DNA of 64,000 nt from sequence record OP292222.1; one strand, given 5' to 3'. The notes beneath the pieces were generated by a model. That model made no database searches, was not told the DNA's origin, and saw only the letters and a program-made list of their open reading frames with translations. Of this stretch, positions 17,554 to 53,706 are shown piece by piece. How positions within the stretch are numbered: position 1 is the first letter of the stretch; each line of letters opens with the position of its first letter. Origin of the DNA: Escherichia phage Esco_phi_B-01. Made by a program: the position numbers and the translations under genes.

Positions 17554-17724
17554 ATGAAAGCTTATTTAGAAACAATTGTTGTAACAAATACAAATACCAC
17601 CGCGGCCTCTCAAATCATCCTAGAGTTTGAGGATGAAATAGCTTTTGCCGATTTTAAAGACGTGTTTGATGGCTATGAAAAAGGCCCGACATTCGAAGTA
17701 TATCGTACGTTGCTACCACTTTAA
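17554..17724 (+). CDS. hypothetical small protein (56 aa)
   Basis: ATG 1 nt after ligase stop; followed by terminator hairpin. Confidence 0.4.
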   Translation: MKAYLETIVVTNTNTTAASQIILEFEDEIAFADFKDVFDGYEKGPTFEVYRTLLPL

Positions 17725-17741
17725 GGCCTTCGGGCCTTTTA
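17724..17741 (+). terminator. intrinsic terminator after the ligase operon
   Basis: AGGCC-TTCG-GGCCT hairpin followed by TTTT. Confidence 0.65.
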
Positions 17742-17774
17742 TGGCATAAATACGGTTATTAAAGAGGAATTATT

Positions 17775-19859
17775 ATGACCGAACAATTAAATGAAGTGTT
17801 TGAGTCTGAAGGCACCCTGCCTACTGTAAACTTAAACCCGAAACTTAAAGTACCACAGATTTGGAAGATTGGTGATGTCGAATCCCAATTAGTTGCTCGT
17901 ATGGTATCTTATGCCTCTGAAGGCGATGCTATTAAACAGGTTAAATTAGGTGATAAATACGCCCACGTTATCCTTATGAGCCTTTCAGCTAAAGGTTCTC
18001 CAGCCGAACTTAAAGGTGGCTTAGGCCCTACTCCTATTGATGCTATTAATACCATTTTCGACGTAGTATTCGAACAAGTTAAAAAGCTTCGTATGGATGC
18101 TGTGATGTTCCGTTTTCCAACCAAGAAAATGAAAGGACAAGGACCTATCGTCCAACGGATTATCCAACGTTTGGTAACTCAAAAAACAGGTGGACGCTTC
18201 AAAGTAGTTCCGGCTATGTACCAATTTACCGGTAAACATACTTATATCCTAGTAGTTCGTAAACAAGCTGATATTGAAGATATCAAAGGTATGCCAGGAA
18301 TTAATGCCGAATTATATACTAAGGTAGATTCTGATGTTGGTGAAGTTTATATTTCTAAAAAAGAAGGTGTGCAGGTTACTAAAGAAACTGCTATTGCCGG
18401 CAGTATTGCTAAAGTTGAAGAACGTCGCACTGATAAAATGGTTATAACCAAGACTAAGATTTCTCGACGCGCTATTGCAGCAAGTCAGTCTTTAGAATCT
18501 TATCGTAATGAAAGTGAGCTGTTTAAGAAATATGAAGCTACTGCAGCAGATTTTAATAAACCGGCAACAGCTCCATTAATTCCTGAAGCACAGGAAATGG
18601 TCACCAATAACAATTCTCCTGCGGCTAAAAATAAAGTTGCTAATATAGTAGCTGAAGGCACAGCCGAAGAGTTGCATTATGAATATAAAATGTTTCCTCT
18701 TCACGGTATAGGTGAAATCCAAGAGAAAATTAAAGAGAGAATCCTTACGGCCATCAAAAACGAACCTTTGACATCTGTTAAAGCTCTAGAAAAATATGCC
18801 TCTGTTATTAATACCGTTTTCGAAGAATACAAAGGTGAATGGCTGGCTATACATAACAAAACTCGTAAAGGTCAACCTGATGACGTCTGGAATGAATTAA
18901 CCGAGTCCAAGTGGAAAGCAGCCAAGACCAAGTTCATTAAAAAACGTGTGTATAGTTTTGCTGGTGTAGGTGGTGGTATTATGGTCGATATTACTATCGC
19001 TCGTGATGGTTCTAAATACACCCCATCACAAAAGCGCGGCATCAGAGAATACTGCGGCTCAGGTTATACCGACATCAATAATCTTCTTTTAGGACGTTAT
19101 AATCCTCAGAACTATGATGTAATGAATGAAAGGTCTATTGAATCTGCTGTTAATAATCTTGATTCAGCTTTTGAAAATGGTGACCGTATACCAGAAGGCA
19201 TTACAGTTTATCGTGCTCAAAGTATGACTGCTCCTATATACGAAGCACTAGTTAAAAATAAGGTATTTTATTTTAGAAATTTTGTATCTACTTCACTGAC
19301 TCCTATCATTTTTGGACGTTTTGGTGTTACACATGCCGGGGTCGGTCTTTTAGAACCGGAAGTTCGCAACGAATTGACAGTCGATAAAAATGAAGAAGGA
19401 ATAACCATTAATCCTAATGAAATAAGAGCGTATAAAGAAAACCCTGATTACGTTAAAGTTCAAATAGGATGGGCAATTGATGGAGCCCATAAAGTTAATG
19501 TTGTATATCCAGGAAGTCTTGGAATAGCAACAGAAGCTGAAGTTATTCTACCACGCGGATTGATGGTCAAAGTTAATAAAATAACTGATGCCTCTAATAA
19601 TGACGGAACGACATCTAGTAATACAAAACTCGTTCAAGCCGAAGTTATGACGACGGATGAGCTTCAAGAATCTGTAGTGTATGATGGTGACGTACTAATG
19701 GAAACTGGTGAGTTGGTCGTATACCAAGATGACTTCGATACTTCCGAAAGCCCTGTATCTTTTGATTCATTTGTTAAATCTACGCGGTTTGACGTACTGC
19801 CTCTTTTGGCTTCATGCATAGACCTCTATGACATACCAGAAAAATTCATCCAAGGGTAA
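17775..19859 (+). CDS. alt: Alt, head-packaged ADP-ribosyltransferase
   Basis: 694 aa; collinear with T4 Alt including ART motifs (TVYRAQ, FVSTSL, EAEVILPRGL) and C-terminus CID..P.KF.QG. Confidence 0.88.
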   Translation: MTEQLNEVFESEGTLPTVNLNPKLKVPQIWKIGDVESQLVARMVSYASEGDAIKQVKLGDKYAHVILMSLSAKGSPAELKGGLGPTPIDAINTIFDVVFEQVKKLRMDAVMFRFPTKKMKGQGPIVQRIIQRLVTQKTGGRFKVVPAMYQFTGKHTYILVVRKQADIEDIKGMPGINAELYTKVDSDVGEVYISKKEGVQVTKETAIAGSIAKVEERRTDKMVITKTKISRRAIAASQSLESYRNESELFKKYEATAADFNKPATAPLIPEAQEMVTNNNSPAAKNKVANIVAEGTAEELHYEYKMFPLHGIGEIQEKIKERILTAIKNEPLTSVKALEKYASVINTVFEEYKGEWLAIHNKTRKGQPDDVWNELTESKWKAAKTKFIKKRVYSFAGVGGGIMVDITIARDGSKYTPSQKRGIREYCGSGYTDINNLLLGRYNPQNYDVMNERSIESAVNNLDSAFENGDRIPEGITVYRAQSMTAPIYEALVKNKVFYFRNFVSTSLTPIIFGRFGVTHAGVGLLEPEVRNELTVDKNEEGITINPNEIRAYKENPDYVKVQIGWAIDGAHKVNVVYPGSLGIATEAEVILPRGLMVKVNKITDASNNDGTTSSNTKLVQAEVMTTDELQESVVYDGDVLMETGELVVYQDDFDTSESPVSFDSFVKSTRFDVLPLLASCIDLYDIPEKFIQG

Positions 19860-19862
19860 ATA

Positions 19863-21986
19863 ATGGAAAATTTAAACGAAGTTTTTGATAGTGATTCCGC
19901 TAAAAACTATCCAGTAACAAATCTTAAGCCGGGCTCCGGTATCCCACAGATTTTCTCTATTAAAGCACCAGGTAACGATAACCTGGTTGCTCGTATGGTA
20001 TCTTATGCGTCTCAAGGAGACGCTATTAAAATGGTTAAGCCTGGCGACAAATACGTTCATGTTATTTTAATGAGTTTGTCGAGCAAGGGTGCTCCGGCTG
20101 AACTCAAAGGTGGCCTTGGTTCCGACCCACTTGGTACATTGAATACTATTTTCGATACGATATATGAACAAGTAAATAAACTTAAAATGGATGCGGTTTT
20201 GTTCCGTTTCCCTACCAAGAAAATGAAAGGTAAGGGCCCTACTGTTCAGCGTGTATTAGCTCGTTTGGCGATGGCACGTACCGGTGGTAAGTTTAAAGTT
20301 GTCGATAGCATGTTCCAGTTTAGTGGTAAACATACATACGTTCTTTTAGCACGTCGTGGCACTAATATCGAAGATATCAAGGGTATGCCTGAAATTGATG
20401 CAGACCTTTATACCAAGGTTGAGTCTAAAGTCGGGGAAGTTTATGTTTCTAAGAAAACTGGCCAGGCCGTAAGTAAGGTCGAAGCCGTAGCAGCATCTAT
20501 TGCGCAGGTTGAAGAGAAACGTACCGATAAGGCTGTTATTTCTCGTACTAAGATTTCCCGTCGTATGGCTGCAGCAGCGCAGTATTCTACTGCCGAACCT
20601 GAAACTTTATCACCTAAAGAATTGCAGGTTTATAACGAGTTTGAAGCTTCTGTCCCTGTTCACTCGGCCGAAGGCCCTGAGAACGAAGGTATTGAGCAGA
20701 TTAGCCAGAACTTTAAAAAAGGTGCTATTACTAAAATGCGTCAGGCCTCTCAGTTTAAATCTAAGAGTGAGGACCTTGCCAACTTTAGATACACCATTGC
20801 TCTCACGCACGCTTTAATGACTGATAGTAAATTTAAACTAAATTATGCTAATAGAGATAAACAAGGGTTTGAAATTTACTCTAATAATATGGCATTTTTT
20901 AATACAGAAGTCGATAGACTTTTAAGCGGCCTTTCTCAAATCAATACTACCAATAGTCTGGATATTATTAAGAGAATTGTTAATAACCTGAGTGCCCGTT
21001 TTCAGGGGTCTCCTTCAGAGAAAGCATCCCGAATTGCTTTCGCTATGGAAGCCGTTTATAAACTGATTAACGATTCTATTAGCGATGCATATGCTTATTC
21101 AGGCGAGCTCATTAAACCTAAGGGCTTGACCAAAGACGAAAGTAATGCCATTATTGAATATTGTGCGGCTGAATATGCTCCTATGAACTTATTCCTTTTA
21201 GGTAAACCTGAATCCGAAAACAATACAACAGCTATTAAATTGATTAAGGATTTAGACTCAGCATTTACCAAGGGTATTAAACTTCCTAAGGGTACTATTT
21301 TGTATCGTGGTCAGGATTTACCATACAAAATTCTGCGCCATAATATTGATAACAAAACATTTTACTTTAAGAACTTTGTGTCCGCTTCATTAAAGCCTAA
21401 TATCTTTGGTGAATTTGGTAAAAATTATATGGCCCTCGACAACCAAGCAGTTTTTGTTGGTGATGAAGGTTCTTTATCCTCCGCCGATGAGTTGTTTAAA
21501 TTGGCCAGTGGTAGTTCATCTGACGTAGGTGAAGTTGATGATGAAGAGGTAGAATGGGAAGAAGACGAGTTTGGTAATCCAATTGCACCTGAAGGCCCTG
21601 CAGACAGGATTGCTGAAATTGGTATGGTTATTAGAGGTGCTGAAGCAGTTAAAGTTATCGCTCCTGGTGACCTTACAGAATATGCCGAAGAAGCGGAAAT
21701 TATCCTTCCACGCGGATTATTGTTGAAGGTTGATAAAGTAGCGGCTTTTGCTATGAATGATAGAGTATCTCACAAATACCTTATGGAAGCTACAGTGACA
21801 TCTCCTTCAGAACTCAGTGAGTCCGTTTACGATGGCGACCATCTGATGGAAACCGGTGAAGTTAAATTGATGAATGGGTTTAAAGAATTCCTAGTTTCAG
21901 AATCTGTTTCAGAAAGTAACGAGGCTATGGAAATCCTTGCTGCATCTTTGGACATCTCTTCTTTACCAAATAAATTCAAAATGTAG
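19863..21986 (+). CDS. Alt-like ADP-ribosyltransferase paralog
   Basis: 707 aa; N-terminal ~230 aa closely similar to the adjacent alt product; retains YRGQ, FVSASL, EAEIILPRGL; divergent middle and C-terminus. Confidence 0.8.
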   Translation: MENLNEVFDSDSAKNYPVTNLKPGSGIPQIFSIKAPGNDNLVARMVSYASQGDAIKMVKPGDKYVHVILMSLSSKGAPAELKGGLGSDPLGTLNTIFDTIYEQVNKLKMDAVLFRFPTKKMKGKGPTVQRVLARLAMARTGGKFKVVDSMFQFSGKHTYVLLARRGTNIEDIKGMPEIDADLYTKVESKVGEVYVSKKTGQAVSKVEAVAASIAQVEEKRTDKAVISRTKISRRMAAAAQYSTAEPETLSPKELQVYNEFEASVPVHSAEGPENEGIEQISQNFKKGAITKMRQASQFKSKSEDLANFRYTIALTHALMTDSKFKLNYANRDKQGFEIYSNNMAFFNTEVDRLLSGLSQINTTNSLDIIKRIVNNLSARFQGSPSEKASRIAFAMEAVYKLINDSISDAYAYSGELIKPKGLTKDESNAIIEYCAAEYAPMNLFLLGKPESENNTTAIKLIKDLDSAFTKGIKLPKGTILYRGQDLPYKILRHNIDNKTFYFKNFVSASLKPNIFGEFGKNYMALDNQAVFVGDEGSLSSADELFKLASGSSSDVGEVDDEEVEWEEDEFGNPIAPEGPADRIAEIGMVIRGAEAVKVIAPGDLTEYAEEAEIILPRGLLLKVDKVAAFAMNDRVSHKYLMEATVTSPSELSESVYDGDHLMETGEVKLMNGFKEFLVSESVSESNEAMEILAASLDISSLPNKFKM

Positions 21987-22334: not shown

Positions 22335-22342
22335 ACCCCTAA

Positions 22343-22368
22343 AGGAGAGCGTAAGCTCTCCTTTTTTG
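22343..22368. terminator. bidirectional terminator between the alt region and gp54
   Basis: AGGAGAGC-GTAA-GCTCTCCT hairpin flanked by AAA upstream and TTTTTGTT downstream. Confidence 0.75.
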
Positions 22369-40275: not shown

Positions 40276-40283
40276 TATTTATA
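40276..40283 (-). promoter_or_regulatory. late promoter for gene 24
   Basis: Minus-strand TATAAATA about 30 nt upstream of gp24 ATG. Confidence 0.6.
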
Positions 40284-40288
40284 AAGTT

Positions 40289-40318
40289 GTTTACAGCAAG
40301 GTTCTCACGTGTTACTAT
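40289..40318 (+). promoter_or_regulatory. early-type promoter
   Basis: GTTTAC (40289-40294), 18-bp spacer, TACTAT (40313-40318). Confidence 0.5.
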
Positions 40319-40347
40319 AGTCCTATCAAAACACGAGGAGATTAAAA

Positions 40348-40614
40348 ATGAACAAATTAAACTTTATCCGTACCACGCTTTCTAACCTTGACAAAGACAT
40401 CAAAGCTCTGGTAGAAAAATTTGGTACCAATCCTAACGGTAATGCAGTTAATGCATTGGTTAAGAAATACGAAGCTCTGGCTTATGAAACCGACTTCTGG
40501 TGGAACGGCGAATACTCTACCCATACCAAAGACAAATATGGTAACTGGCTGAAAATCCAAGAAAATCGTATTGACTTCCGTGATATCATCAACCGTCGAG
40601 TTAAGATTGCATAG
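40348..40614 (+). CDS. hypothetical protein (88 aa)
   Basis: SD GAGGAG; early-type promoter upstream; terminator hairpin downstream. Confidence 0.55.
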   Translation: MNKLNFIRTTLSNLDKDIKALVEKFGTNPNGNAVNALVKKYEALAYETDFWWNGEYSTHTKDKYGNWLKIQENRIDFRDIINRRVKIA

Positions 40615-40627
40615 TACAGAAACAAGA

Positions 40628-40649
40628 ATGGGAGACCGAAGTCTCCCAT
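40628..40649 (-). terminator. hairpin/terminator downstream of gene 23
   Basis: ATGGGAGAC-CGAA-GTCTCCCAT perfect 9-bp stem; U-tract weak. Confidence 0.55.
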
Positions 40650-40663
40650 AATAAGGTTAGGTA

Positions 40664-42223
40664 TTAGATACCTTTAACATAAACGCGACGGAAGTAACCA
40701 TTCAGACCGAGGCTGTTAACGATGTCAGGCATACCGCTCTGAATACGTTTGGTAGGAGCCTGTGCAGACGGGTCAGCGAACGGGTTAATACCGATACCGT
40801 AACGAGTTTTGAAGCCCATTACCGGCTGGAAGTTCTTCGGATCGGAACCGCGCAGTGGGGTAAGTGCAACGTAAGGAGCGTAGTAGATACCTGCGTCCAT
40901 TTCGTTGGAACCTTTATAACCGATGGTGAAGTAATCAGCACGGGCATACTGGTCGATGTAAACGCGATATTTACCACCAAGAACACCGGCAAATACTGCT
41001 TTAGTGGTGTCAACGTTGAAACCTTGACCCAGACCTTGAGCTGCATAACTTACAGAAGTATCAACTGCAGCCAGTACGTTAACTACGTTACGGGAAGCGA
41101 TGATGAAGTTACCAGCACCACGACCGGTCTGACGAGCGATTTCGGCTGCTTCTTTATCAATCTGGAACAGAAGGGCTTTAAAGCTCTCACCGGCCCAACG
41201 AGCACCACGGATATCAATCGGGTCCTGGAAGTCAAACACACCAGCTTTAGCGCCAACGGTGTTGGTCATACCAGATTTACCAACCTGTGCAGAGTAGTTA
41301 ATCCAATCGATAACTTCACGGTTGATTTCGAGCATAATTTCGGTAGCAAGGATACCGGACAGTTCAGCATCTGCATCCATACCGTGTACTGCACGAAGGT
41401 CCTGTGCCAGTTCGATGGAATAGCTTGCTTTCAGCTGACGGGATTTAGCTTCGATAACTTGTTTATCGATACGGAAGCCCATTTCGTTCCACGGGTTATC
41501 CTGAGAACCGTTAAAGCCTTCCTGAAGTTCAGCGATAGAAGTAGCCATACCTTCAGCCAATTCAGCCAGCTGACCAGCTTCCAACAGAGCAGTTACGGCA
41601 ACATCCAGTTTAGCGGCATCAGTAGCAGCAGCATCAACGGTTACGGCTTCAACAGCCTGGAAGTGTGCAGCACCGGTAGCTTCGAAGAAGTGAGAATAAA
41701 TTTTACCAACTTCCAGAACTTTACCTGCAGCCAGTGCTTCAAAAGTCTGAGCAGCGCCCTGACCAGAGAACATAGCGTTCGGAGCATACATCGGGTGGAA
41801 AGCTTCTTTAGCGCCAGCAGCGATAGGGTCTTTACCGTATACTGCACGCAGTGCAAATACCTGGCCGGTAGGGTTATTCAGAGGCTGAACACCACAAATA
41901 TCAAAAGCAATCAGATGAGGAATAGCACGACGAACCATACCCATTACTGCCGGCCCAATCTGAGTTACAGCACCAGAGGTCTGGCCAGCTGCGATATTGG
42001 TAGCATCATAACCGTGGTCACCACCGATTTCAGCTTCGGTCAGGAAAGAACCAAATGCTTCAGAGATTTTTTCGTCACGATATTCAGGAGCGGTCAGAAT
42101 ATCTTGTTCCTGGTTTTCGAAAATTTTAGCGATGATAGCTTGTTTAGAAGCACCAACGATTTCAGGAAGAGCTTCGTTTTCCAGCAGAGCGGACCATTTT
42201 TGAACTAATGCATTCTTTTTCAT
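40664..42223 (-). CDS. 23: gp23 major capsid protein
   Basis: 519 aa; size, position and N-terminal region consistent with T4 gp23. Confidence 0.92.
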   Translation of the reverse strand: MKKNALVQKWSALLENEALPEIVGASKQAIIAKIFENQEQDILTAPEYRDEKISEAFGSFLTEAEIGGDHGYDATNIAAGQTSGAVTQIGPAVMGMVRRAIPHLIAFDICGVQPLNNPTGQVFALRAVYGKDPIAAGAKEAFHPMYAPNAMFSGQGAAQTFEALAAGKVLEVGKIYSHFFEATGAAHFQAVEAVTVDAAATDAAKLDVAVTALLEAGQLAELAEGMATSIAELQEGFNGSQDNPWNEMGFRIDKQVIEAKSRQLKASYSIELAQDLRAVHGMDADAELSGILATEIMLEINREVIDWINYSAQVGKSGMTNTVGAKAGVFDFQDPIDIRGARWAGESFKALLFQIDKEAAEIARQTGRGAGNFIIASRNVVNVLAAVDTSVSYAAQGLGQGFNVDTTKAVFAGVLGGKYRVYIDQYARADYFTIGYKGSNEMDAGIYYAPYVALTPLRGSDPKNFQPVMGFKTRYGIGINPFADPSAQAPTKRIQSGMPDIVNSLGLNGYFRRVYVKGI

Positions 42224-42244
42224 GTGTTGTATAACCTTATTAAA

Positions 42245-43060
42245 TTAAGAAATTCGAGATGCTGCGATTGCAGACAGGTCCGCGAAGGACAGGGTAGGCT
42301 TAGCGCCTTTTTCTTCAACTGCTTCCGAAATATAATTCAGTGCTGCAGCATCGTCTTCAGTTTTATTTATAGCGGCTTCGGTGATTGGTTTTTCAACGTC
42401 AGTCTGGCCTTTAACCATTTCAACGATAGCGCCAATTTTTTTACCAAATGCATCGGAATAATCCATGCCTTCTACCAGAGAACTAACTTTTTCTTTCTGA
42501 GATTCAGTCAGGTCTTTAGTTGCTTCAGTCAACGCAACTTCACGCTGTACGTAATTAATATATGCGTCACGCTTACCAACTTCTTCGAACAGACGAGCGG
42601 TTTCATCTTTCTGCTCTTGGAGTTCTTCTTCCATTTCAGCAACAACATCCACTGCTTCTTCTGGAACAACCACATTGTGTTCAACAAACAGTTCTTTCAT
42701 ACCCATCAACATGGATTCGAACAGTTCGGCTTTAATACCTTTATCAACAGCCAGCTGGTTTTCAGCCATCCATTCTTTAGCGACGTGGTCAAGGAAACGA
42801 CCGGCAGCTTCTTGGATTTTCTTATCAGCTTTTTCTTCAGCTTCTTCTTTATTTTTCTCAACTTCTTCTTCCGCTTTTTCAGCGATTTTAGCGATGTGAG
42901 ATTCAGCCAGTTTAACGGCGTGTTGCTTGACGGTAGCTTCGAATACAGTGCCGAAAGTTTCTTTTGCTTCCGGAGAAATATTAACTGATTCGAAAATACT
43001 GTCAAGAGCAACGGAAGCATCAATATTCTGTGCTTCGGCAATCAGTTGTTCTTTAAGCAT
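42245..43060 (-). CDS. 22: gp22 prohead core scaffold protein
   Basis: 271 aa; charged helical composition; position and size as T4 gp22. Confidence 0.8.
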   Translation of the reverse strand: MLKEQLIAEAQNIDASVALDSIFESVNISPEAKETFGTVFEATVKQHAVKLAESHIAKIAEKAEEEVEKNKEEAEEKADKKIQEAAGRFLDHVAKEWMAENQLAVDKGIKAELFESMLMGMKELFVEHNVVVPEEAVDVVAEMEEELQEQKDETARLFEEVGKRDAYINYVQREVALTEATKDLTESQKEKVSSLVEGMDYSDAFGKKIGAIVEMVKGQTDVEKPITEAAINKTEDDAAALNYISEAVEEKGAKPTLSFADLSAIAASRIS

Positions 43061-43087
43061 TTTGTAGTCCTGTTGTTTAGATAATAA

Positions 43088-43095
43088 TATTTATA
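43088..43095 (-). promoter_or_regulatory. late promoter for gene 22
   Basis: Minus-strand TATAAATA overlapping the gp21 stop. Confidence 0.6.
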
Positions 43096-43726
43096 ACGCT
43101 TTTTTCATGGCCTCTGCGAGAGCCATAAAGGCGTCATCGGCACTGGTATCGGTATCTACCGTTTGTGATTCTGTAATTTGTTTAGGAGTTACATAAGCAT
43201 CAGGAGCAGATGGACCCCATACTGCATCAACACCGACGGTTAATTTATAACCTTCGTTTACACGCTTATATCCTTTATTGGTTTCGGTTAAAGAACCTAG
43301 ACCACGAGAACTAACACCAGGCACCCAACCAGCTCTAATATTAGCAGCTAGTTTATCACCAGGACCATGGTCGCCTTCAATAATACGAGCACGTCCATAA
43401 ACGTCATTACCTTTCCACCACATATCTTCAATAATAATAGCGGCTTGCATAGGGTCGACGTTAGCACGAGGCGGATGATTTAATTCTCCTAAAGCTTGTT
43501 TAGTAGCAACCTGTTCTGCCATATAATCGGCAACAGCTTTTTCCAAAATAGGTTTTGGATAAAGGCGTTTATTACGGTTAACCACTTCGGCTTGCATGAA
43601 TATGCCTTCTATATAAAGGCCCGGGGCAAGTCCAGAATCTTTTCCATCATGAGATTCCAACATCGGAACCCCATCGATAATTTCACCTGGTTGTCCCCAA
43701 TGTTCGATGAGCAATTCAGGTTTCAT
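43091..43726 (-). CDS. 21: gp21 prohead core protease
   Basis: 211 aa; size and position as T4 gp21. Confidence 0.8.
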   Translation of the reverse strand: MKPELLIEHWGQPGEIIDGVPMLESHDGKDSGLAPGLYIEGIFMQAEVVNRNKRLYPKPILEKAVADYMAEQVATKQALGELNHPPRANVDPMQAAIIIEDMWWKGNDVYGRARIIEGDHGPGDKLAANIRAGWVPGVSSRGLGSLTETNKGYKRVNEGYKLTVGVDAVWGPSAPDAYVTPKQITESQTVDTDTSADDAFMALAEAMKKAL

Positions 43727-44154
43727 TAGTTAAGTCCAAAGGCTTTACGTTTAGAACGAGCTTTCTTACGCTTACGTTCAGCACGTACTTGAGTAGACGG
43801 GTTAGCACGTTTGGTTTTAGACGCTTTGCGAGCGATCTGACGGCGTTTTGCTTTAGACAACCCAGTCGTTTGATAAGCGTTGCGTTGACGGGTTTTAATA
43901 TCTTTAGTACGAGTAAGCTCACCTTTAGAAGAGACGTGCTTAACGATAAATTCGTTAAGAGCCATATTTTCATTCAAAGAGGCAATGGCAATAGCTGTAT
44001 CGATATCACCATCAGCAATCATGTTCTCTACAAGATTATTTATATCGCTTTTCTCGAGGGCTTCAGAAAGAGTAGCAAAACGTCCCTGTGCTTCTGGAAT
44101 TTTGGCCTCTACGCTTTCTAGAGTTAATTCGTAATCATCAGGGATAAGGAACAT
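43726..44154 (-). CDS. 68: gp68 prohead core protein
   Basis: 142 aa; N-terminus [21 protein letters not shown] as T4 gp68. Confidence 0.75.
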
Positions 44155-44429
44155 TATTCGTCGTCCTCGTCGTCTTCATCGTCGTCATCACCTTCATCCG
44201 CATCGTCAGATTCTTTTTTGTCTTTCTTATCTGCTTTATCGGATTTTTCGTCTTTATCTTCGTCTTCGTCATCTTTATCAGCTTCTTCGCCTTCAATCAT
44301 AACGGAGCGAGCAATTTCTGCTTTACGGGCTTCAATCAAAGCGGCTACTCGAGATTCGATAAGCGGGCCTGCTGCTTTACGAACTGCTACGAGGTCGTTT
44401 GATTTAATAGCTTCGATTAAATCTTCCAT
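44154..44429 (-). CDS. 67: gp67 prohead core protein
   Basis: 91 aa; highly acidic C-terminal tail; position as T4 gp67. Confidence 0.7.
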
Positions 44430-46003
44430 TAGAAATCCTCTTCTTCTTCATCTGGGTTTTGGAAACGAGCCTCTTTAGACTCTTCTTCAATTTGCTTAGC
44501 TTCTTGATTAATTTCTTCGTCAGTCATCTGAAGGAAATCTTTCATAGCCGTTTGATGTGAAATATACTTACCAATAAATGGTTCAGCCATCGTTAGCATA
44601 TTGATTCTGCGTTCCATGATTTCCGCATCTTTCATTTCACTGAAATAGCTATCACGGTTGAACGTAACTTTAATATTATTTATTTCTCTTTCCCACTCAT
44701 CTTCTGTAATAATCTTTTTAAGAATGAGGTTTGTTTTTAATGGGTCTAAGAAAATTTCTTCAAATTTATTTTGGAGCTGGCGAATCCATTTAGCAAATTT
44801 CAACTCATCGCGAGTGATTGCTGTACCGGCATCAAACATAACGCCTGAATTAGATTCACTAGGGATACGTGACTCTGGAATACGCAGTGCACGATAAAGT
44901 GCTGTGCGGAAATAAAGAACATCATCCATATCACTCATACCAGTAGCACCTGGCATTGTATCAACTTCTGTTACCGCTTTACCGTCACGACGTTGCAACC
45001 AATAGTCTTCAGTCATGGACATATTGTGTTGTTGGTTTTTAATTTTACCGGTCGAAGCATCATACACCACACGGTTTTTCATCGTGTTCATGATATGTTG
45101 CATTTGTGCTGCAGCCTTACGTGAAGGCATATTACCTGTATCGATATAAAACACACGACGGTCAGGAGCACGTGTAATACGGTAGATGACCATTGCATCT
45201 TCCATCAATTTAAGCTGGTTTGCAGGCTTAATAGCACGTTGCAAATAGCCAATGATGTTTTTACCACAACAATCTAATAATCCAGAATGTGCATAAACTA
45301 CGGCAGCACGAGGAATTTTAACTTTAGTCCCGGCTGAATAAATGCGTCCATCAGCACAATAACTTTCATGACCAGTATCGTAAACGAAAAACTCGCGGTA
45401 CCCATCTACAATTTTAACACCATCTTCCATACGTGTAACAATTTCACGAATATATTGGACTTGGCGCGGGTCTAAGCGTCGAAGCTCTTGTACGCCATCT
45501 TTCATTTTTTTAGGGTTTATAATTTTATGAAAGAATATTCTCGAGTCCACATACCAACGTTGGAAATGGTCAGTGCCTTTACGTTGGAAATTTAAAAGAT
45601 TCAAAACTTCACTAAATTCAGCCAAAATTTTATCTTTAATTGATTGACTGAAATCTGTCCCGTCTAAATTTAATGCAACTACTTCTTTATCATCCTCGTA
45701 GACAATAGCGTCAGACACAATTTCTTGAACTGCGTTATCGACTTCATAGTTGTTCATCAAATTACGGTAGGTATCAATGAGTTCCCTGGTGTTTTTAACT
45801 TCAGGCTCATTACTACCAAACATTTGTTGCATAAGAGCGTTATAAGGAATATTTTGCTCTTGGGTTTCAATTTCGCGAGCGCCATCATCAAGCTTAGGTG
45901 CAGTGACAGACTCTAAATTGTTATTAATTTGTTGTTTATATTCTTTTTCGTCTTCATTAGCCCATGGCTTAAGAAAACTTAATATTGTATTAAAGTTTGC
46001 CAT
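44429..46003 (-). CDS. 20: gp20 portal vertex protein
   Basis: 524 aa, same length as T4 gp20; SD GGAG. Confidence 0.88.
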
Positions 46004-46051
46004 TAGAGTCTCCGATGAATGGGATAAGGAGCCGAAGCTCCTTTATAATTC

Positions 46052-46059
46052 TATTTATA
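46052..46059 (-). promoter_or_regulatory. late promoter for gene 20
   Basis: Minus-strand TATAAATA between gp19 stop and gp20 start. Confidence 0.6.
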
Positions 46060-46060
46060 C

Positions 46061-46564
46061 TCATTCCCACCAATCGATAGCGAACGTAGATTCGAAAGTT
46101 TCTACCTCGTTGTTTGAATCCCAATCCATCTGGACTTCACCAACGTTAGTAGGCCATAAGCCATAAATTGTAACTTCTTTAGTCACAGTCTTACCGTCAC
46201 GATGGAACTGACGAACAACTGCTTGTTTCTTATATTCTGCAGGTGCTGCACCCGTAATTTCATTGGTCATACCATGGCAGAGGTTTTGCCAATCAACAAT
46301 TGCCTGACGGGTGTCATGGGCATCATCGTTATAAATGGTAATGGTCCAATCATCAAACGTACGGTCGCCAGCTACGTTAATTTTACGGTTCATGTAGCCA
46401 ACCGGTACTTTTTCTACAATGCCTGCCGGCATAGGTGCTGCTTTACATTTAAAGCTAAAGTTTTTACCAAGAAATGGAATTTCCACTTCGAAAAGGTTAG
46501 GGCGTGCAAAGTCACCTGACTCAAACGCACGAGTGATATCTGTCAACTCCATGGGATGCCTCAT
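46061..46564 (-). CDS. 19: gp19 tail tube protein
   Basis: 167 aa; size and position as T4 gp19. Confidence 0.85.
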   Translation of the reverse strand: MRHPMELTDITRAFESGDFARPNLFEVEIPFLGKNFSFKCKAAPMPAGIVEKVPVGYMNRKINVAGDRTFDDWTITIYNDDAHDTRQAIVDWQNLCHGMTNEITGAAPAEYKKQAVVRQFHRDGKTVTKEVTIYGLWPTNVGEVQMDWDSNNEVETFESTFAIDWWE

Positions 46565-46604
46565 AAGTCAGTTCCTGGCCACACCAGGAACGTTCTGATT
46601 AATT

Positions 46605-46612
46605 TATTTATA
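46605..46612 (-). promoter_or_regulatory. late promoter for gene 19
   Basis: Minus-strand TATAAATA about 40 nt upstream of gp19 ATG. Confidence 0.55.
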
Positions 46613-46737
46613 ACAGTTGATAAATCATATTCCTGATAGTAAATCACTCCCAGGCGCAATTCTACGTGATGTACGCTGTAACCAAACACATGGTATAATG
46701 GTTTTAGGTTCTTTATATTACAGCCTGGGATAATAGA

Positions 46738-48720
46738 TTATACTAAAGGTCCAATCAATTCATCAAAATCAGCACCAGTGCTCGTTGCAACGAAGTTCAA
46801 CGTGATGTAGTTAATAGAACGAGCAGGTTTAACATAGATATTAGCAATAAACTCATTACGGTCGATAACCGCAGGGGTGTTCACTGTAGTATCACAAACC
46901 ACACGTCCTTCATAAATCCCACCAAGTGCCTTAATACCATCTAAGTACTGAGAAACTTCCATACGGAAGCTTGAACGAGTGAAGTTATCGTTCAATTCAA
47001 ACAGTTTATATTTAGAGGCATCACCGATATTTTTCTTAAGCATGTTGAACAGACGGCGAACGTTAATATGGTCCATCGGAGATGGAACTTTAGTTGCAGT
47101 CTTATCACCAAACAATACGAAACCATCACCACCAGCAAAACCAACAACTGGGTTAATAGCTTCCTGGTACATGCGGTCACGTTGTGCTTGACGTGGTTCA
47201 ATTGCCAATTTCAGAACGTTAAGAATCTGACCACGGTTATAACCGGCAGGAGACATCCAAGGCTGAGACACATCATCAGTACGTGCACACAAACCAGCCA
47301 AATCGGCAGCCAGTGGTACCCAACGGTTTACGTCGTTATATTTGTCGTATTGATATTTATAGTTACCATCAATAGCGGCATAAGTGGTACTGATGTTCAT
47401 GTTGTTGGCATCGAAATTACCGGCACCGGTACGCCAGTCGATAAGGTTATCTACTGCACGAGTTAGTGGAACGTTAACCAACAGACCTTTAGGAGGAGAA
47501 ATAAATGCTAAGCAATCCTGACGTTCATCAGCAATACTCACAACGTGTTTCTGAACAGTAGAAGCCACTTCATCGCCTTCACCAGCAACAGCACCAGCAA
47601 TAAGCAGGTTAATATGGAGTGCTTCACGGTCGGCAAACAAATCCCAACCCTGCATCAAATCACCTGCAGTAACTTTATCGTTAGCGGAAATACCACCAGA
47701 CAGATTAATGATACCGCTAAATCCTTTCGGCCAGTTCAGAGAAGTCGCATAGATGTAATTAGAAGTACCTTTAGCGAAATAGTCGTCAAGATAAATGTTA
47801 TTACCGTAAACGTCTTTTTCACCTTCTTTGGTAGAAAGTACGACGGATTCTACGATAGCGCCATCGCGACGAACGATAATGGCATATTGGTCATCTGTTT
47901 GTGGGCCGTAATTAAATACTGCCTTGGCAATAGAAGCACGGGTACCGCCACCAGGATAAACATCCAACATTTTAGAAGAACCAGCTTCATAAGCTGCTTT
48001 AGAAACGATTTCTACTTCCAGAGTAGAACCAATTTCACCAGGATAAAGAGCCACTACGCCTGGCATAGCAAATTTCTTAAGGGCCGCTTGGAATTCAAGA
48101 GAAGTAATAGCTTCTTCACTATTCTCGGCTTCGGTCAAAAGAATACCGGAATCGGTAACAATTCGGCCAACGGTAATAGTACCGGAAACACCCGAAGAGG
48201 CGGAAGTAACTTCAGCAGTCCAAGCCGGGCCTAGGGTAGGATACTGGTTTAAAGAACGTGCGTAAGCAATAATTTTTGCTGACGGAATAAACACAGAAAG
48301 AATTTTACCGTCTGTATCTACAGAAGTCACACGACCTTCAGATTCGACTACAGTTTGGTTATATTTAATATTAATTTTATCGCCTACAGCATAGTTGGAA
48401 CCAGCCGTAGTAATAGTGGTTTCGATATTACCAGCGATAGGAGATGCGTTTTTAGCAAATTCGCGACTAACGACACGAACTGTACGAAGGTCATTACCAT
48501 ACTGGAGGAAGTTCATACCAGACATAAAGTAATCTGCTACTTCGTTATTAGGACCTCCAAACAAATCAACCAGTTCAACTTCATTGGTAATCTGAGTTAC
48601 CTGGAAAGCAGGGCCCCACTGGAATTTACCAACCAGCGCTGCACGACCCGTTGCGTTACGAACGACAGTACTCTGTACGGACGTTTCTTTGAGCTCAATG
48701 CCCGGTGATAATAAAGCCAT
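46738..48720 (-). CDS. 18: gp18 contractile tail sheath protein
   Basis: 660 aa; size and position as T4 gp18; SD AGAGGA. Confidence 0.9.
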   Translation of the reverse strand: MALLSPGIELKETSVQSTVVRNATGRAALVGKFQWGPAFQVTQITNEVELVDLFGGPNNEVADYFMSGMNFLQYGNDLRTVRVVSREFAKNASPIAGNIETTITTAGSNYAVGDKINIKYNQTVVESEGRVTSVDTDGKILSVFIPSAKIIAYARSLNQYPTLGPAWTAEVTSASSGVSGTITVGRIVTDSGILLTEAENSEEAITSLEFQAALKKFAMPGVVALYPGEIGSTLEVEIVSKAAYEAGSSKMLDVYPGGGTRASIAKAVFNYGPQTDDQYAIIVRRDGAIVESVVLSTKEGEKDVYGNNIYLDDYFAKGTSNYIYATSLNWPKGFSGIINLSGGISANDKVTAGDLMQGWDLFADREALHINLLIAGAVAGEGDEVASTVQKHVVSIADERQDCLAFISPPKGLLVNVPLTRAVDNLIDWRTGAGNFDANNMNISTTYAAIDGNYKYQYDKYNDVNRWVPLAADLAGLCARTDDVSQPWMSPAGYNRGQILNVLKLAIEPRQAQRDRMYQEAINPVVGFAGGDGFVLFGDKTATKVPSPMDHINVRRLFNMLKKNIGDASKYKLFELNDNFTRSSFRMEVSQYLDGIKALGGIYEGRVVCDTTVNTPAVIDRNEFIANIYVKPARSINYITLNFVATSTGADFDELIGPLV

Positions 48721-48749
48721 TTTGAATCCTCTTGGTTATGCTTTATTGT

Positions 48750-51059
<2,310 letters not shown>

Positions 51060-51063
<4 letters not shown>

Positions 51064-51926
51064 GGGTTTCTCCTTGGTGCTGGAGGTTCTGGTTCAACAG
51101 GCACCGGAATATCTTGTGAATATGTTTGAATGGATTTACCGTCCCATTCTTTTTCTTCTACACCTCTAGGAACTACTTCGCTATCAACCGATTCAAAATT
51201 ACCCTCAGGAGCGAGTTCTTTAGAGTTGGCAAAGAAATCAAGATAAATGGTTTTGATTTCGCCTTCCATTTCTTTAACAGGAGGATATAGCCATCCGTTA
51301 ACCTCAAACATCATAGACCATTCCAAGCGACGACGTGAAGTGGTATCGCCTTCTAATTGTTCATCCATTGCTATAGATTGGAACACAATACGAATATCAC
51401 GGTCAAATTTAATTTCGTTTGTATAGAGTTCGGTAATTGTTGTATTAAAGTGAGGTTGGAAATACGGCATAATTTGTTCCACAATCTGGAACATATCATC
51501 TTGAGTTCTAGTGTAAATACCCAGTTCAAAAATCATTTTTACTGGAGTAGGAGAATATTGGCTGACTCGTTTACGAGGGTCTCCATTCTCAAATTGAATT
51601 TGTGTTCTATTTTGAAGAGCTGTTTTGTATTGTGAGTTATAAAGCATGTCAACCATTTGGAGGTTCATACGTGGAAGAACAGTTTCAACCTTAGCTTTTT
51701 GTTCAGCCCTTTCTTTTGGCGTCATATTAGGATTTGGGATATTCTGTACTGCTGTCCACTTACCTAAATTAGCCATAAATCTTTCTTTAGAAGCATACGT
51801 AATAGGAACCTTAATAAATTTAAGCCCTGTATCTTCTCTTTGACGTGCTACTTGAACATGGGAAAATAAATCACCCATCAAAACAATATAGCGACGTAGC
51901 GAACTATTATACCAATGTCCAAACAT
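51060..51926 (-). CDS. 15: gp15 tail sheath stabiliser / tail completion protein
   Basis: 288 aa from ATG 51926 (track start is TTG); SD AGGAGG; matches T4 gp15 blocks ([25 protein letters not shown]). Confidence 0.8.
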
Positions 51927-51939
51927 CAAACCTCCTAAA

Positions 51940-51958
51940 ATGGCGCGGGATGCGCCAT
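51940..51958 (-). terminator. hairpin (terminator/attenuator) between gp14 and gp15
   Basis: ATGGCGC-gggat-GCGCCAT hairpin; on minus strand followed by TTTT then SD AGGAGG of gp15. Confidence 0.5.
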
Positions 51959-51965
51959 GTATTAT

Positions 51966-52739
51966 TTAATCATCTAAAAAAGCATCATCAAATGCTGTAG
52001 GAGGAGCATCTTCTCCTCTACCGTTAATCACTACATAAGGGTGTACGAATTCCGCTGCTTCAGCATTAATCTCATTAACCTCTTCATATTGGATATCAGA
52101 GATATCAGCCAACCCATCAATATTCTTAACAGGCATTAAATCAAGCTCACTGAATTCAGGAATATTAATGCCTTCATTTCTCTGTAATTCAGGACGAAGT
52201 TCTTCACCATTATAAATGAACTTGGTAGCAGTAATGCGACGCTGGACGTTTGTACCGACTTGATAGAACGGGTCGTAAGGTTGAACCCAGTTAATTTCAA
52301 ATAGGCTGTTGTCCATTGGGAAATAAATCAAATCACCCGAAACAGGTTCAGTACCGTTGCATTGATGTTTAAAAAGGTTAGGGTTAATTGTGATTGTTAC
52401 TTCATCATTAACCATCATACCGAACTTACTGAAATAAGTATTGTCACCGGAATAACCTTCAAAGGAATCCAAATAACCCGCAAACTTCCAGGCTTTAGTA
52501 AATTTGTTCTGAAGGTCTTCGCCAAATAGCTGGTCAGGATTAACGTATTCGCGTGGTATATAATAAAGCTCGATACCACGCATTTGAATAGACTCAGCAA
52601 CTAAAGCATCAGCCAATGTTTGAGTGTTCTCATGGCGATAAAAGTTGACGAAAGGGTTCATTATTTCAGTTTCGTTCGTGTTAGCATAGCCGGTGTTATT
52701 TTCCAGCTTAGCAAATAAACTCGAATCGAAAGTAGCCAT
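51966..52739 (-). CDS. 14: gp14 neck protein
   Basis: 257 aa; size and position as T4 gp14. Confidence 0.8.
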
Positions 52740-52741
52740 AA

Positions 52742-53677
52742 TTATCCAATTAAAATAGGTGTTGGTGGGTCGAGCAAATCTAATTCTTCGCGAAGACGTT
52801 CTTTTTCTAAACGAGCTTCTTCAATCAATCGAATGCCGTCTACAGTGGTTCCGCCGGCTAATTGCATACCTTGGTGTTTGGCTAAAATATTACCATTGAC
52901 CTCTTTAACTAATGCCGTAGCGTAATCTTTGACCCAACGGTTATTATACGCGCCATCTTGTAGTCCAAGGTCCTCACCAGCTCTCATTCCAGAAATTCGA
53001 CGCGCAGGATTGTCCCAAATAGCCCCAGGACTCCATTCATTTTCGTCACAGCCACCAGAAGCATATCCATATCCTGCTGTATTCCCAACCATGGAATCAA
53101 CGCCATTAAATGAACGGGTATAAACTTCAATTACAATAAAGTCGCCTTTAACAAAGTTGCCCATTACCTTCAATTGTTCAGTGGCATCATTATACCAATA
53201 ATCAGGCAGCGGAACCAAAAGGTCCTGCATCATAGAACGATATTGCATTAATTGTGTAAAATAGCCAAGGTCGGCGCCGAAGGCATTAGGTCCAAAACTA
53301 TTACATGAAGACCCAAGACCACCATTAATACCTGCCAAACCTAGTACAAAATCTGTAAACCATGGATAAGTTGCTTGCCCGTCCATAGATGTTAAAGAGC
53401 CAACGTTAGTTCTCAAAATTTGTGTTACTGCAAATATATTACGTCCTTTAAGGTCGAATACGCCATTACGGAATTTTTCTTCATCGTCATGGCCAATATA
53501 AAAAGCCTGATAACCTTTGTTATACCCGTTATAATGGTATTCGCCGTAGAGCTCCAGGGCGCGCTGGATGCAATCGTATACTTGGTCAGTAGTTACTTCA
53601 ATATTTGTAATCGGTGCACCCAGGCGGCGCAGAATAGCGTCCTTGAGTTGCTTAGGGTTATATGATTCACTTGCCAT
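52742..53677 (-). CDS. 13: gp13 neck protein
   Basis: 311 aa; size and position as T4 gp13. Confidence 0.8.
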
Positions 53678-53698
53678 GTTTTATTCCTCTAATAACCG

Positions 53699-53706
53699 TA
53701 TTTATA
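53699..53706 (-). promoter_or_regulatory. late promoter for gene 13
   Basis: Minus-strand TATAAATA just downstream of the wac terminator. Confidence 0.6.

Follow-up and report, generated by a model that had tools for sequence, protein, structure and literature searches.

Alt proteins and related ADP-ribosyltransferases

The best described relative of the proteins considered here is Alt of phage T4 (gpAlt), a NAD+--arginine ADP-ribosyltransferase (ART) of 682 amino acids (aa). About 40 copies of T4 Alt are assembled into the prohead core, and the protein is still present in the head after maturation (PMC9026906). As determined by mass spectrometry, gp21, the prohead protease, trims Alt at both ends, by 6 residues at the N-terminus (ITE-6) and by 63 at the C-terminus (LTE-619) (PMC5694885). 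Alt paralogues in T4-like phages were described by Nolan et al. (2006). In this work, we analyzed a 64,000-nucleotide (nt) stretch of the genome of Escherichia phage Esco_phi_B-01 (OP292222.1; referred to below as the window), in which two adjacent genes, altA and altB, encode full-length members of the Alt family.

In phage T2, alt is likewise present as two full-length genes (697 and 685 aa), with 3 nt between them. We found no functional study of the second T2 protein (YP_010073850, 685 aa) in the literature; its counterparts occur in about 400 Tequatrovirus records. T4 contains one intact alt and a remnant, alt.-1/alt.-2 (L002:4066-4451), which its annotation describes as an ancient duplication of the beginning of alt, whereas Esco_phi_B-01 has two intact genes.

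Other R-S-E ARTs are related more distantly. The toxins C3, VIP2, iota-Ia, CDTa and Vis (PF03496) have the catalytic fold and motifs in common with AltA and AltB, but the C3/VIP2/iota-type toxins carry secretion signals or binary-toxin adaptors, in contrast to the phage-specific N-terminal module (N module) and protease-trimmed termini of Alt. T4 ModA and ModB are likewise phage ARTs of the R-S-E clade and act on host transcription and translation proteins; they differ from Alt in their size (~200 aa), early expression, exclusion from the virion and lack of an N module. A comparison with ModA and ModB, proposed with an earlier reading of this DNA from its sequence (hereafter the original prediction), revealed no BLAST-level similarity for AltA or AltB. 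A closer kinship with these enzymes was rejected, as BLASTP E-values were at least 0.066, the alignments were short and lay outside the ART core, and the architecture was different. BLAST detected no Mod homolog in the window.

A tandem pair of alt genes in Esco_phi_B-01

The altA gene (17775-19859, plus strand) codes for a 694-aa A-type Alt, orthologous to T4 Alt, and altB (19863-21986, plus strand) for a 707-aa B-type Alt. The stop codon of altA is separated from the start codon of altB by 3 nt (TAA-ATA-ATG). The 5.4-kb alt region is 97.5% identical at the nt level to that of Escherichia phage JS10 (Dhakavirus, Straboviridae), in which the equivalent genes are annotated as alta and altb and are flanked by gene 30 (DNA ligase)/alt.1 and alt.-3/gene 54. 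AltA and AltB are 99.3% and 99% identical, respectively, to the JS10 proteins. The gene order 30 - alt.1 - alt - alt - alt.-3 - 54 agrees with T4 and T2, and the annotations of JS10 and JS98 concur. Esco_phi_B-01 is a JS10-like Dhakavirus and this region its alt locus; both the annotation of altA and altB and their tandem arrangement were already known. No tRNA gene or Rfam family reached threshold anywhere in the window (1-64000).

Both proteins matched Pfam family PF03496 (ADP-ribosyltransferase exoenzyme) above threshold (AltA, 1.5e-35; AltB, 5.9e-18) and were covered end to end by phrog_802, "Alt-like RNA polymerase ADP-ribosyltransferase" (residues 1-693 of 694 in AltA, 3e-263; residues 1-707 of 707 in AltB, 2e-250), and no NCBIfam model matched either of them. 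In full-length alignments to T4 Alt, AltA was 47% and AltB 33% identical. When the two were compared with each other by BLASTP, the N-terminal 239 residues showed 64% identity (E 1e-102) and the C-terminal ~300 residues 34% (E 9e-39). Residues ~240-415 had no similarity by BLASTP and were 9-13% identical in multiple alignments. The original prediction had described adjacent Alt-type open reading frames (ORFs) of ~700 aa, 3 nt apart, with closely related N-terminal ~230 aa and differing remainders. The ORF coordinates, the PF03496 and phrog_802 matches and the pairwise alignments (between the two proteins and with T4 Alt, all placing both in the Alt family over their full length) bear this description out, and every motif that it quoted was found in the AltA and AltB sequences. 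It had also considered that the second ORF could be a known conserved single-copy gene unrelated to Alt, which altB is not.

The tandem alt pair is ordinary among T-even phages and no peculiarity of this genome. The N module of AltB was found by tblastn at 1811 places in 1201 phage records, and the B-type body, including its distinctive middle region, was at least 80% covered in 461 phage records. Genes annotated as alta and altb are also present in JS98 and IME08, and some Dhakaviruses (MX01, QL01, WG01, AnYang and others) possess three alt genes. T4 alt.-1 and alt.-2 matched residues 1-61 and 62-116 of the second T2 Alt at 89% and 96% identity, compared to 56-62% for T4 Alt itself; because of this difference, they are the decayed remnant of a lost B-type gene and not a copy of T4's own alt. 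AltB is the ortholog of both the second alt product of T2 and this remnant.

T4 Alt resembles the pair in gene position, in its layout of N module, body and tail, in the R-S-ExE residues and in two L/I-x-E sites, and its ART domain is 63% identical to that of AltA. However, its N module is only 42-46% identical to those of AltA and AltB, and its middle region is unrelated to that of AltB (12-13% identity). The second T2 protein has a B-type body and a tail like AltB, ending in ...KFKM, but differs in having S-T-S and no acidic run (see below); its N module is 45% identical to that of AltB, compared to 68% for T2's own first gene.

ART fold and catalytic residues

An ART fold of the C3/VIP2-like type was found in the C-terminal half of both AltA (~aa 413-632) and AltB (~aa 420-653). 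Conservation was assessed in a family alignment of 63 sequences, which was also used for the AlphaFold2 models (mean predicted local distance difference test, pLDDT, 83.4 for AltA and 78.8 for AltB). The catalytic residues are R480 (YRAQ), S505-T-S (FVSTSL) and E587-A-E589 (EAEVILPRGL) in AltA, and R482 (YRGQ), S507-A-S (FVSASL) and E610-A-E612 (EAEIILPRGL) in AltB. Across the 63 members, no variation was seen in the first Ser of S-x-S, in the two Glu of E-x-E or in the LPRG that follows, and the Arg was nearly invariant. AltA and AltB are Alt-family ARTs with intact catalytic residues and are probably active enzymes. That both keep the R, S-x-S and ExE motifs had been claimed from the sequence alone, and the possibility raised at the time, that the second ORF would lack an ART fold, does not apply, as AltB has both the PF03496 match and the fold. 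A sequence search of the PDB gave only weak iota/CDTa matches for AltA and none for AltB, so no Alt structure appears to have been deposited.

The ART domain of AltB contains an acidic loop of 63 residues (17 D/E versus 2 K/R), predicted to be disordered and situated between the S-x-S strand and the strand that precedes ExE. Most of the loop had a pLDDT below 50 in the AlphaFold2 model (residues 518-539 and 551-565, covering the greater part of an acidic run). This run, DDEEVEWEEDEF, had been noted as an insert specific to the second copy, and we located it at AltB aa 559-570 (21537-21572, plus strand). It was absent from T2 gene 2, the closest B-type relative compared, and from A-type bodies.

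In the Alt of RB69 (P0113), the deposited sequence could not be aligned to AltB aa 474-515, the region of the catalytic Arg and the S-T-S strand, although both flanks aligned well. This suggests that the record contains a local frameshift or sequencing error or that the active site has truly been lost.

Predicted processing sites and domain layout

The positions aligned to T4 ITE-6 and LTE-619 are LNE-7 and LQE-632 in AltA, and LNE-6 and LSE-653 in AltB. Among the 63 homologs, the Glu of the N-terminal site was invariant and that of the C-terminal site nearly invariant. The N-terminal signature L-x-E-[VAI]-F-[DE] was also present in distant family members identified by an exhaustive profile search. 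The C-terminal site is followed by a conserved tail, S-V-(x)-Y-D-G-D-x-L-M-E-T-G-E.

These sites divide each protein into comparable parts, all encoded on the plus strand. AltA begins with a predicted propeptide, MTEQLNE (17775-17795), which ends at a predicted gp21-type site, L-N-E|V; E7 and F9 are invariant in the family. It is followed by the N module, a basic alpha/beta domain (aa 8-238, 17796-18488), and by the body (aa 239-632, 18489-19670), which comprises a helical middle region and the ART domain, ends with LQE632 and is delimited by the JS98 breakpoints discussed below. The tail (aa 633-694, SVVYDGDVLMETGE...IPEKFIQG, 19671-19856), aligned with the part of T4 Alt released at LTE-619, is a predicted C-terminal propeptide; E632, D637 and G638 are nearly invariant, and the tail is 98% identical to that of JS98 in spite of the differing body. 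In AltB, the predicted propeptide is MENLNE (19863-19880), again with a predicted protease site L-N-E|V and with the invariant residues E6 and F8. The N module (aa 7-240, 19881-20582) has an isoelectric point (pI) of 9.75. The body, defined by the alignment and the AlphaFold2 model (aa 241-653, 20583-21821, ending with LSE653), consists of a B-specific helical middle region and the ART domain, and the predicted C-terminal propeptide (aa 654-707, SVYDGDHLMETGE...LPNKFKM, 21822-21983) is of the B type, 62% identical to the tail of T2 gene 2. The C-terminal tail is a second element common to AltA and AltB, which had been overlooked earlier.

Since both proteins keep the two prohead-protease sites of T4 Alt, packaging, trimming and injection of both is the best reading of these conserved motifs. 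The original prediction had further equated the N-terminal ~230 aa with a head-packaging region of T4 Alt. We found no substantiation for this view, as targeting is credited in the literature to short propeptides, with the role of the two propeptides of Alt left open (PMC5694885).

Mosaic structure and exchange of ART bodies

For a comparison of mosaic structure, the proteins were split into N module, middle region, ART domain and tail. N modules grouped by genus: identity was 65% between AltA and AltB and 68% between T2 gene 1 and gene 2, versus 42-47% between genera. Bodies and tails grouped by type: AltB was 44/58/62% identical to T2 gene 2 (middle/ART/tail), versus 13/35/41% to AltA. AltA and T2 gene 1 shared 94% of residues in the ART domain and 47% in the N module.

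The same pattern was evident in the DNA. Over 8.7 kb, the window and T2 were 45-76% identical, except for an island at 18980-19660 (plus strand) within the ART-coding part of altA, which was 83-96% identical to the first alt of T2, a phage of a different genus. This island is best read as an ART segment exchanged laterally between genera. Compared to JS98, nt identity was 93-100% on both sides but 44-79% between ~18500 and ~19690. The breakpoints correspond to AltA codons ~242 and ~638 and so enclose precisely the mature body, with the N module and the C-terminal tail left outside. The AltA body of JS98 differs from the one described here (36% identity in the middle region and 61-70% in the ART region, depending on its delimitation) and resembles that of RB69 (68/64%, middle/ART). 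Additional combinations were detected in other phages: a B-type N module is joined to a T4-Alt-like body in Bp7 and to further types of body in P0003/P0004 and P0007. In phages of the MX01 type, an additional gene in the middle of the array joins a B-type N module and an A-type tail to a novel body; in MX01 itself (L004:3376-5421), the N module is 90% identical to that of AltB, the middle region 11-22% and the ART domain 31-39% identical to the A and B types, and the tail 68% identical to the A type. This chimeric gene appears to have arisen by unequal crossing-over within the array.

The sharp JS98 breakpoints, the T2 island and the occurrence of the same type of N module with different bodies argue that the ART-containing body is a cassette exchanged by recombination between conserved flanks, also between genera. 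The N module would evolve with the genome, via gene conversion between tandem copies or repeated import of bodies. Polymorphic effector systems, such as MuF-fused head proteins, Rhs and CDI, are similar in their conserved flanks, sharp boundaries, mobile variable enzymatic part, tandem arrays and chimeric copies. They differ from the alt locus, in which the variable part is always an ART of one family and the N module is found only in T4-like phages. No small immunity-like ORF was observed after altA or altB. According to a 2025 preprint, T4 depends on Alt to escape the Mokosh type I system, and Alt of Bas37 cannot take its place, which provides a plausible selective reason for the turnover of Alt bodies. 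The exchange of cassettes suggests selection for a changing target or anti-defence specificity.

The N module

In a profile search, the N module was identified in 72 of 1.84 billion representative proteins and was always N-terminal. Nearly all carriers were 600-712 aa long and had an Alt-type ART; the exceptions were a dozen short sequences (<250 aa), which resembled fragments or remnants, and a few proteins without a recognizable domain. With so few carriers, nearly all of them with an Alt-type ART, the N module is an Alt-specific module, confined to T4-like phages, and the same distribution ruled out a generic delivery domain attached to other effectors. Of the common delivery scaffold proposed in the original prediction, what stands is that AltA and AltB share the N module; the notion of a general delivery scaffold does not, as its carriers have ART bodies. 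The module had no relatives in the Pfam, NCBIfam and PDB sequence libraries searched; a newer Pfam accession, PF26846, is listed on all family members in the protein database.

Among the exceptions, the distant proteins P0170 (1142 aa), P0173 (541 aa), P0172 (347 aa) and P0169 (485 aa) carried Alt-type N modules (E 1e-22 to 1e-14) without a clear ART or other Pfam domain; for two of them there was no match to an ART, and for the other two it was marginal (E ~1e-6). These proteins may be highly diverged Alts or may combine the N module with a different kind of protein. The N module had a pI of 9.3-9.75 and the body a pI of 4.8-5.8 in each of the five proteins tested. This split in charge (window positions 17775-18488 and 19863-20576) would be compatible with an N module placed on the packaged DNA.

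We also considered that the N module is of GNAT ancestry, an enzyme or cofactor-binding domain of the acyl-CoA N-acyltransferase kind. Alt proteins would then be two-headed modifiers and the N module would be conserved for that function, not for delivery. Evidence for a GNAT-like fold was weak: a small RNase E domain scored equally high, and GNAT motif A (Q/R-x-x-G-x-G/A, at the beta4-alpha3 junction) was incomplete in the corresponding segment, K120-M-K-G123-x-x, in which G123 is invariant and the final G/A is replaced by E in most members. At the sequence level, GNAT homology was rejected. No GNAT family was detected in Pfam at E<=10 and none in a PDB profile search, and hhalign against RimI gave a probability of ~0.1%. 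An alignment of the RimI family was negative as well, although this search added little, because the RimI homologs in the set were 83-100% identical, too uniform for a strong profile. Matches of the N-module profile to RIG-I helicase (E about 0.05) were judged to be due to chance. We regard GNAT ancestry as clearly unlikely. Its bolder form is quite improbable: an N module that binds acyl-CoA or acetylates would make every Alt a two-enzyme injected modifier, with the ART bodies, including the B type, serving as cassettes against host defence and not only against RNA polymerase. A GNAT-like nature of the N module is possible, as a lead and not a finding.

Proposed function of AltA and AltB

Membership in the Alt family, the ART fold, the motifs for catalysis and cleavage, the synteny and the mosaic structure were shown by the present analysis. 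Taken together with what is known of T4 Alt, we estimate a probability of roughly three in four that this alt locus encodes two Alt ARTs of the T4 Alt layout, which would be packaged, trimmed at both ends and injected, and which probably have different targets. Each protein would consist of a 6-7-residue N-terminal propeptide ending with L-x-E, a basic N module of ~230 aa, an acidic body of ~390 aa, in which a helical region precedes an R-S-ExE ART domain of the C3/VIP2/iota-like type, and a tail behind the second L-x-E (a predicted 54 aa in AltB and 62 aa in AltA). By homology with T4 Alt, AltA and AltB would join the prohead core, lose their terminal propeptides to the prohead protease and remain in the head once it is filled. 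After entering the cell together with the DNA, they may mono-ADP-ribosylate host proteins on arginine with NAD+, before any phage gene is expressed. AltA is the counterpart of T4 Alt, which targets RNA polymerase alpha and other proteins, and AltB that of the uncharacterized second Alt of T2. Because its helical region and the loops around its active site are different, AltB is most likely directed at other host proteins than AltA. By homology, a pair of injected effectors that differ in their targets, which the original prediction had put forward as a possibility, is the most reasonable reading, given that both proteins keep the processing motifs of the packaged T4 Alt.

Several points weigh against this proposal. 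Expression, packaging, cleavage, injection, enzymatic activity and distinct targets are inferred for this phage, and our literature search returned no expression, proteomic or enzymatic data on its Alt proteins or on any B-type Alt, and nothing specific on Dhakavirus virion proteomics, the altA/altB naming or an Alt N-terminal domain. The L-x-E motifs are short, so that the argument for processing hangs on their position and conservation. Different targets are deduced from divergence, and divergent Alt bodies could converge on RNA polymerase alpha. In addition, the promoter-like box upstream of altA has one mismatch, and one-mismatch matches to this motif are not enriched in the window (see below). 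Finally, AltB has S-A-S where >90% of the Alt family has S-T-S. S-x-S is generally sufficient in this ART clade.

The possibility of convergence leads to a reading in which AltB is redundant, a second dose or host-range variant directed at the same targets as AltA, RNA polymerase alpha Arg265 and others. The architecture, catalytic residues and processing motifs are indeed alike in the two proteins, T4 is fully viable after losing its B-type gene, and Alt itself is non-essential. However, the two types remain distinct across genera (the ART domain of AltB is closer to T2 gene 2 than to AltA, 58% versus 35%), the middle regions of AltA and AltB are unrelated, and the intact B-type bodies in 461 phage records argue for a separate selected function. 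We consider redundancy unlikely. An AltB that remains unpackaged and acts late inside the producing cell, in the way the Mod enzymes act early, would agree with the lack of virion data on B-type Alt proteins in the literature we searched. It would leave unexplained why AltB keeps the N module and both propeptide-type termini of the packaged T4 Alt, and it fits poorly with the probable co-transcription of altB with altA behind a late-promoter-like box and with the absence of BLAST similarity to ModA or ModB; we give it little credence. The substitution in S-x-S, together with the long disordered acidic insert in the ART domain, could also point to an inactive paralog whose sole role is that of an internal head or core protein, such as a filler that influences the length of packaged DNA. 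T4 alt mutants package more DNA, and Alt hence occupies head volume. We view this explanation as very improbable. Two packaged and injected ARTs, probably with different host targets, remain our preferred reading.

In large part, these findings confirm existing annotation, as tandem alt genes have featured in GenBank and in publications on T4-like phages since 2006-2009. The remaining interest lies in the B-type Alt, which is uncharacterized though intact in T2 and in hundreds of coliphages that are candidates for therapy, in the cassette-like ART bodies and in the possible GNAT-like N module. The exchange of ART bodies between genera fits a role in an arms race, and conserved flanks with swapped bodies offer a practical design for testing the specificity of injected effectors.

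Predicted transcription signals

A hairpin followed by a T run (AAGGCC-TTCG-GGCCTT, 17723-17740, plus strand) was read from the sequence immediately 3' of the alt.1 stop codon. T4 has the identical hairpin, AAAGGCCTTCGGGCCTTT, upstream of alt, and a terminator at this place is kept in 5 of 6 T4-like genomes (PMC1524935). The Esco_phi_B-01 hairpin is this conserved terminator; a simple terminator scan missed it on account of its short stem. Behind the hairpin lies CATAAATA (17745-17752, plus strand), a putative late promoter for an altA-altB(-alt.-3) transcript. It differs from the T4 late-promoter box, TATAAATA, at a single position, and in T4 the exact box follows the same hairpin at the corresponding place. 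Since one-mismatch matches are not enriched in the window, the case for CATAAATA as a promoter rests on this positional homology. A ribosome-binding site, GAGG (17764-17767, plus strand), is located between CATAAATA and the altA start codon, and the 3' end of altA contains a Shine-Dalgarno-like AAGGG ahead of altB. The 3-nt gap between the two genes has no promoter and no room for one. The likely arrangement is late co-transcription of altA and altB from the promoter-like box behind the conserved hairpin.

Scans of the alt locus for sigma-70 promoters and terminators did not exceed shuffled expectation, except for the terminator between alt.-3 and gene 54. At this site (22341-22367), a strong hairpin of 10 pairs with a GTAA loop and T runs lies between the convergent genes and is likely a bidirectional terminator. 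Exact TATAAATA boxes occurred 16 times in the window, versus 7.15 expected; ten of them were on the minus strand within 40276-53706, and these minus-strand boxes at 40-54 kb presumably precede late structural genes.

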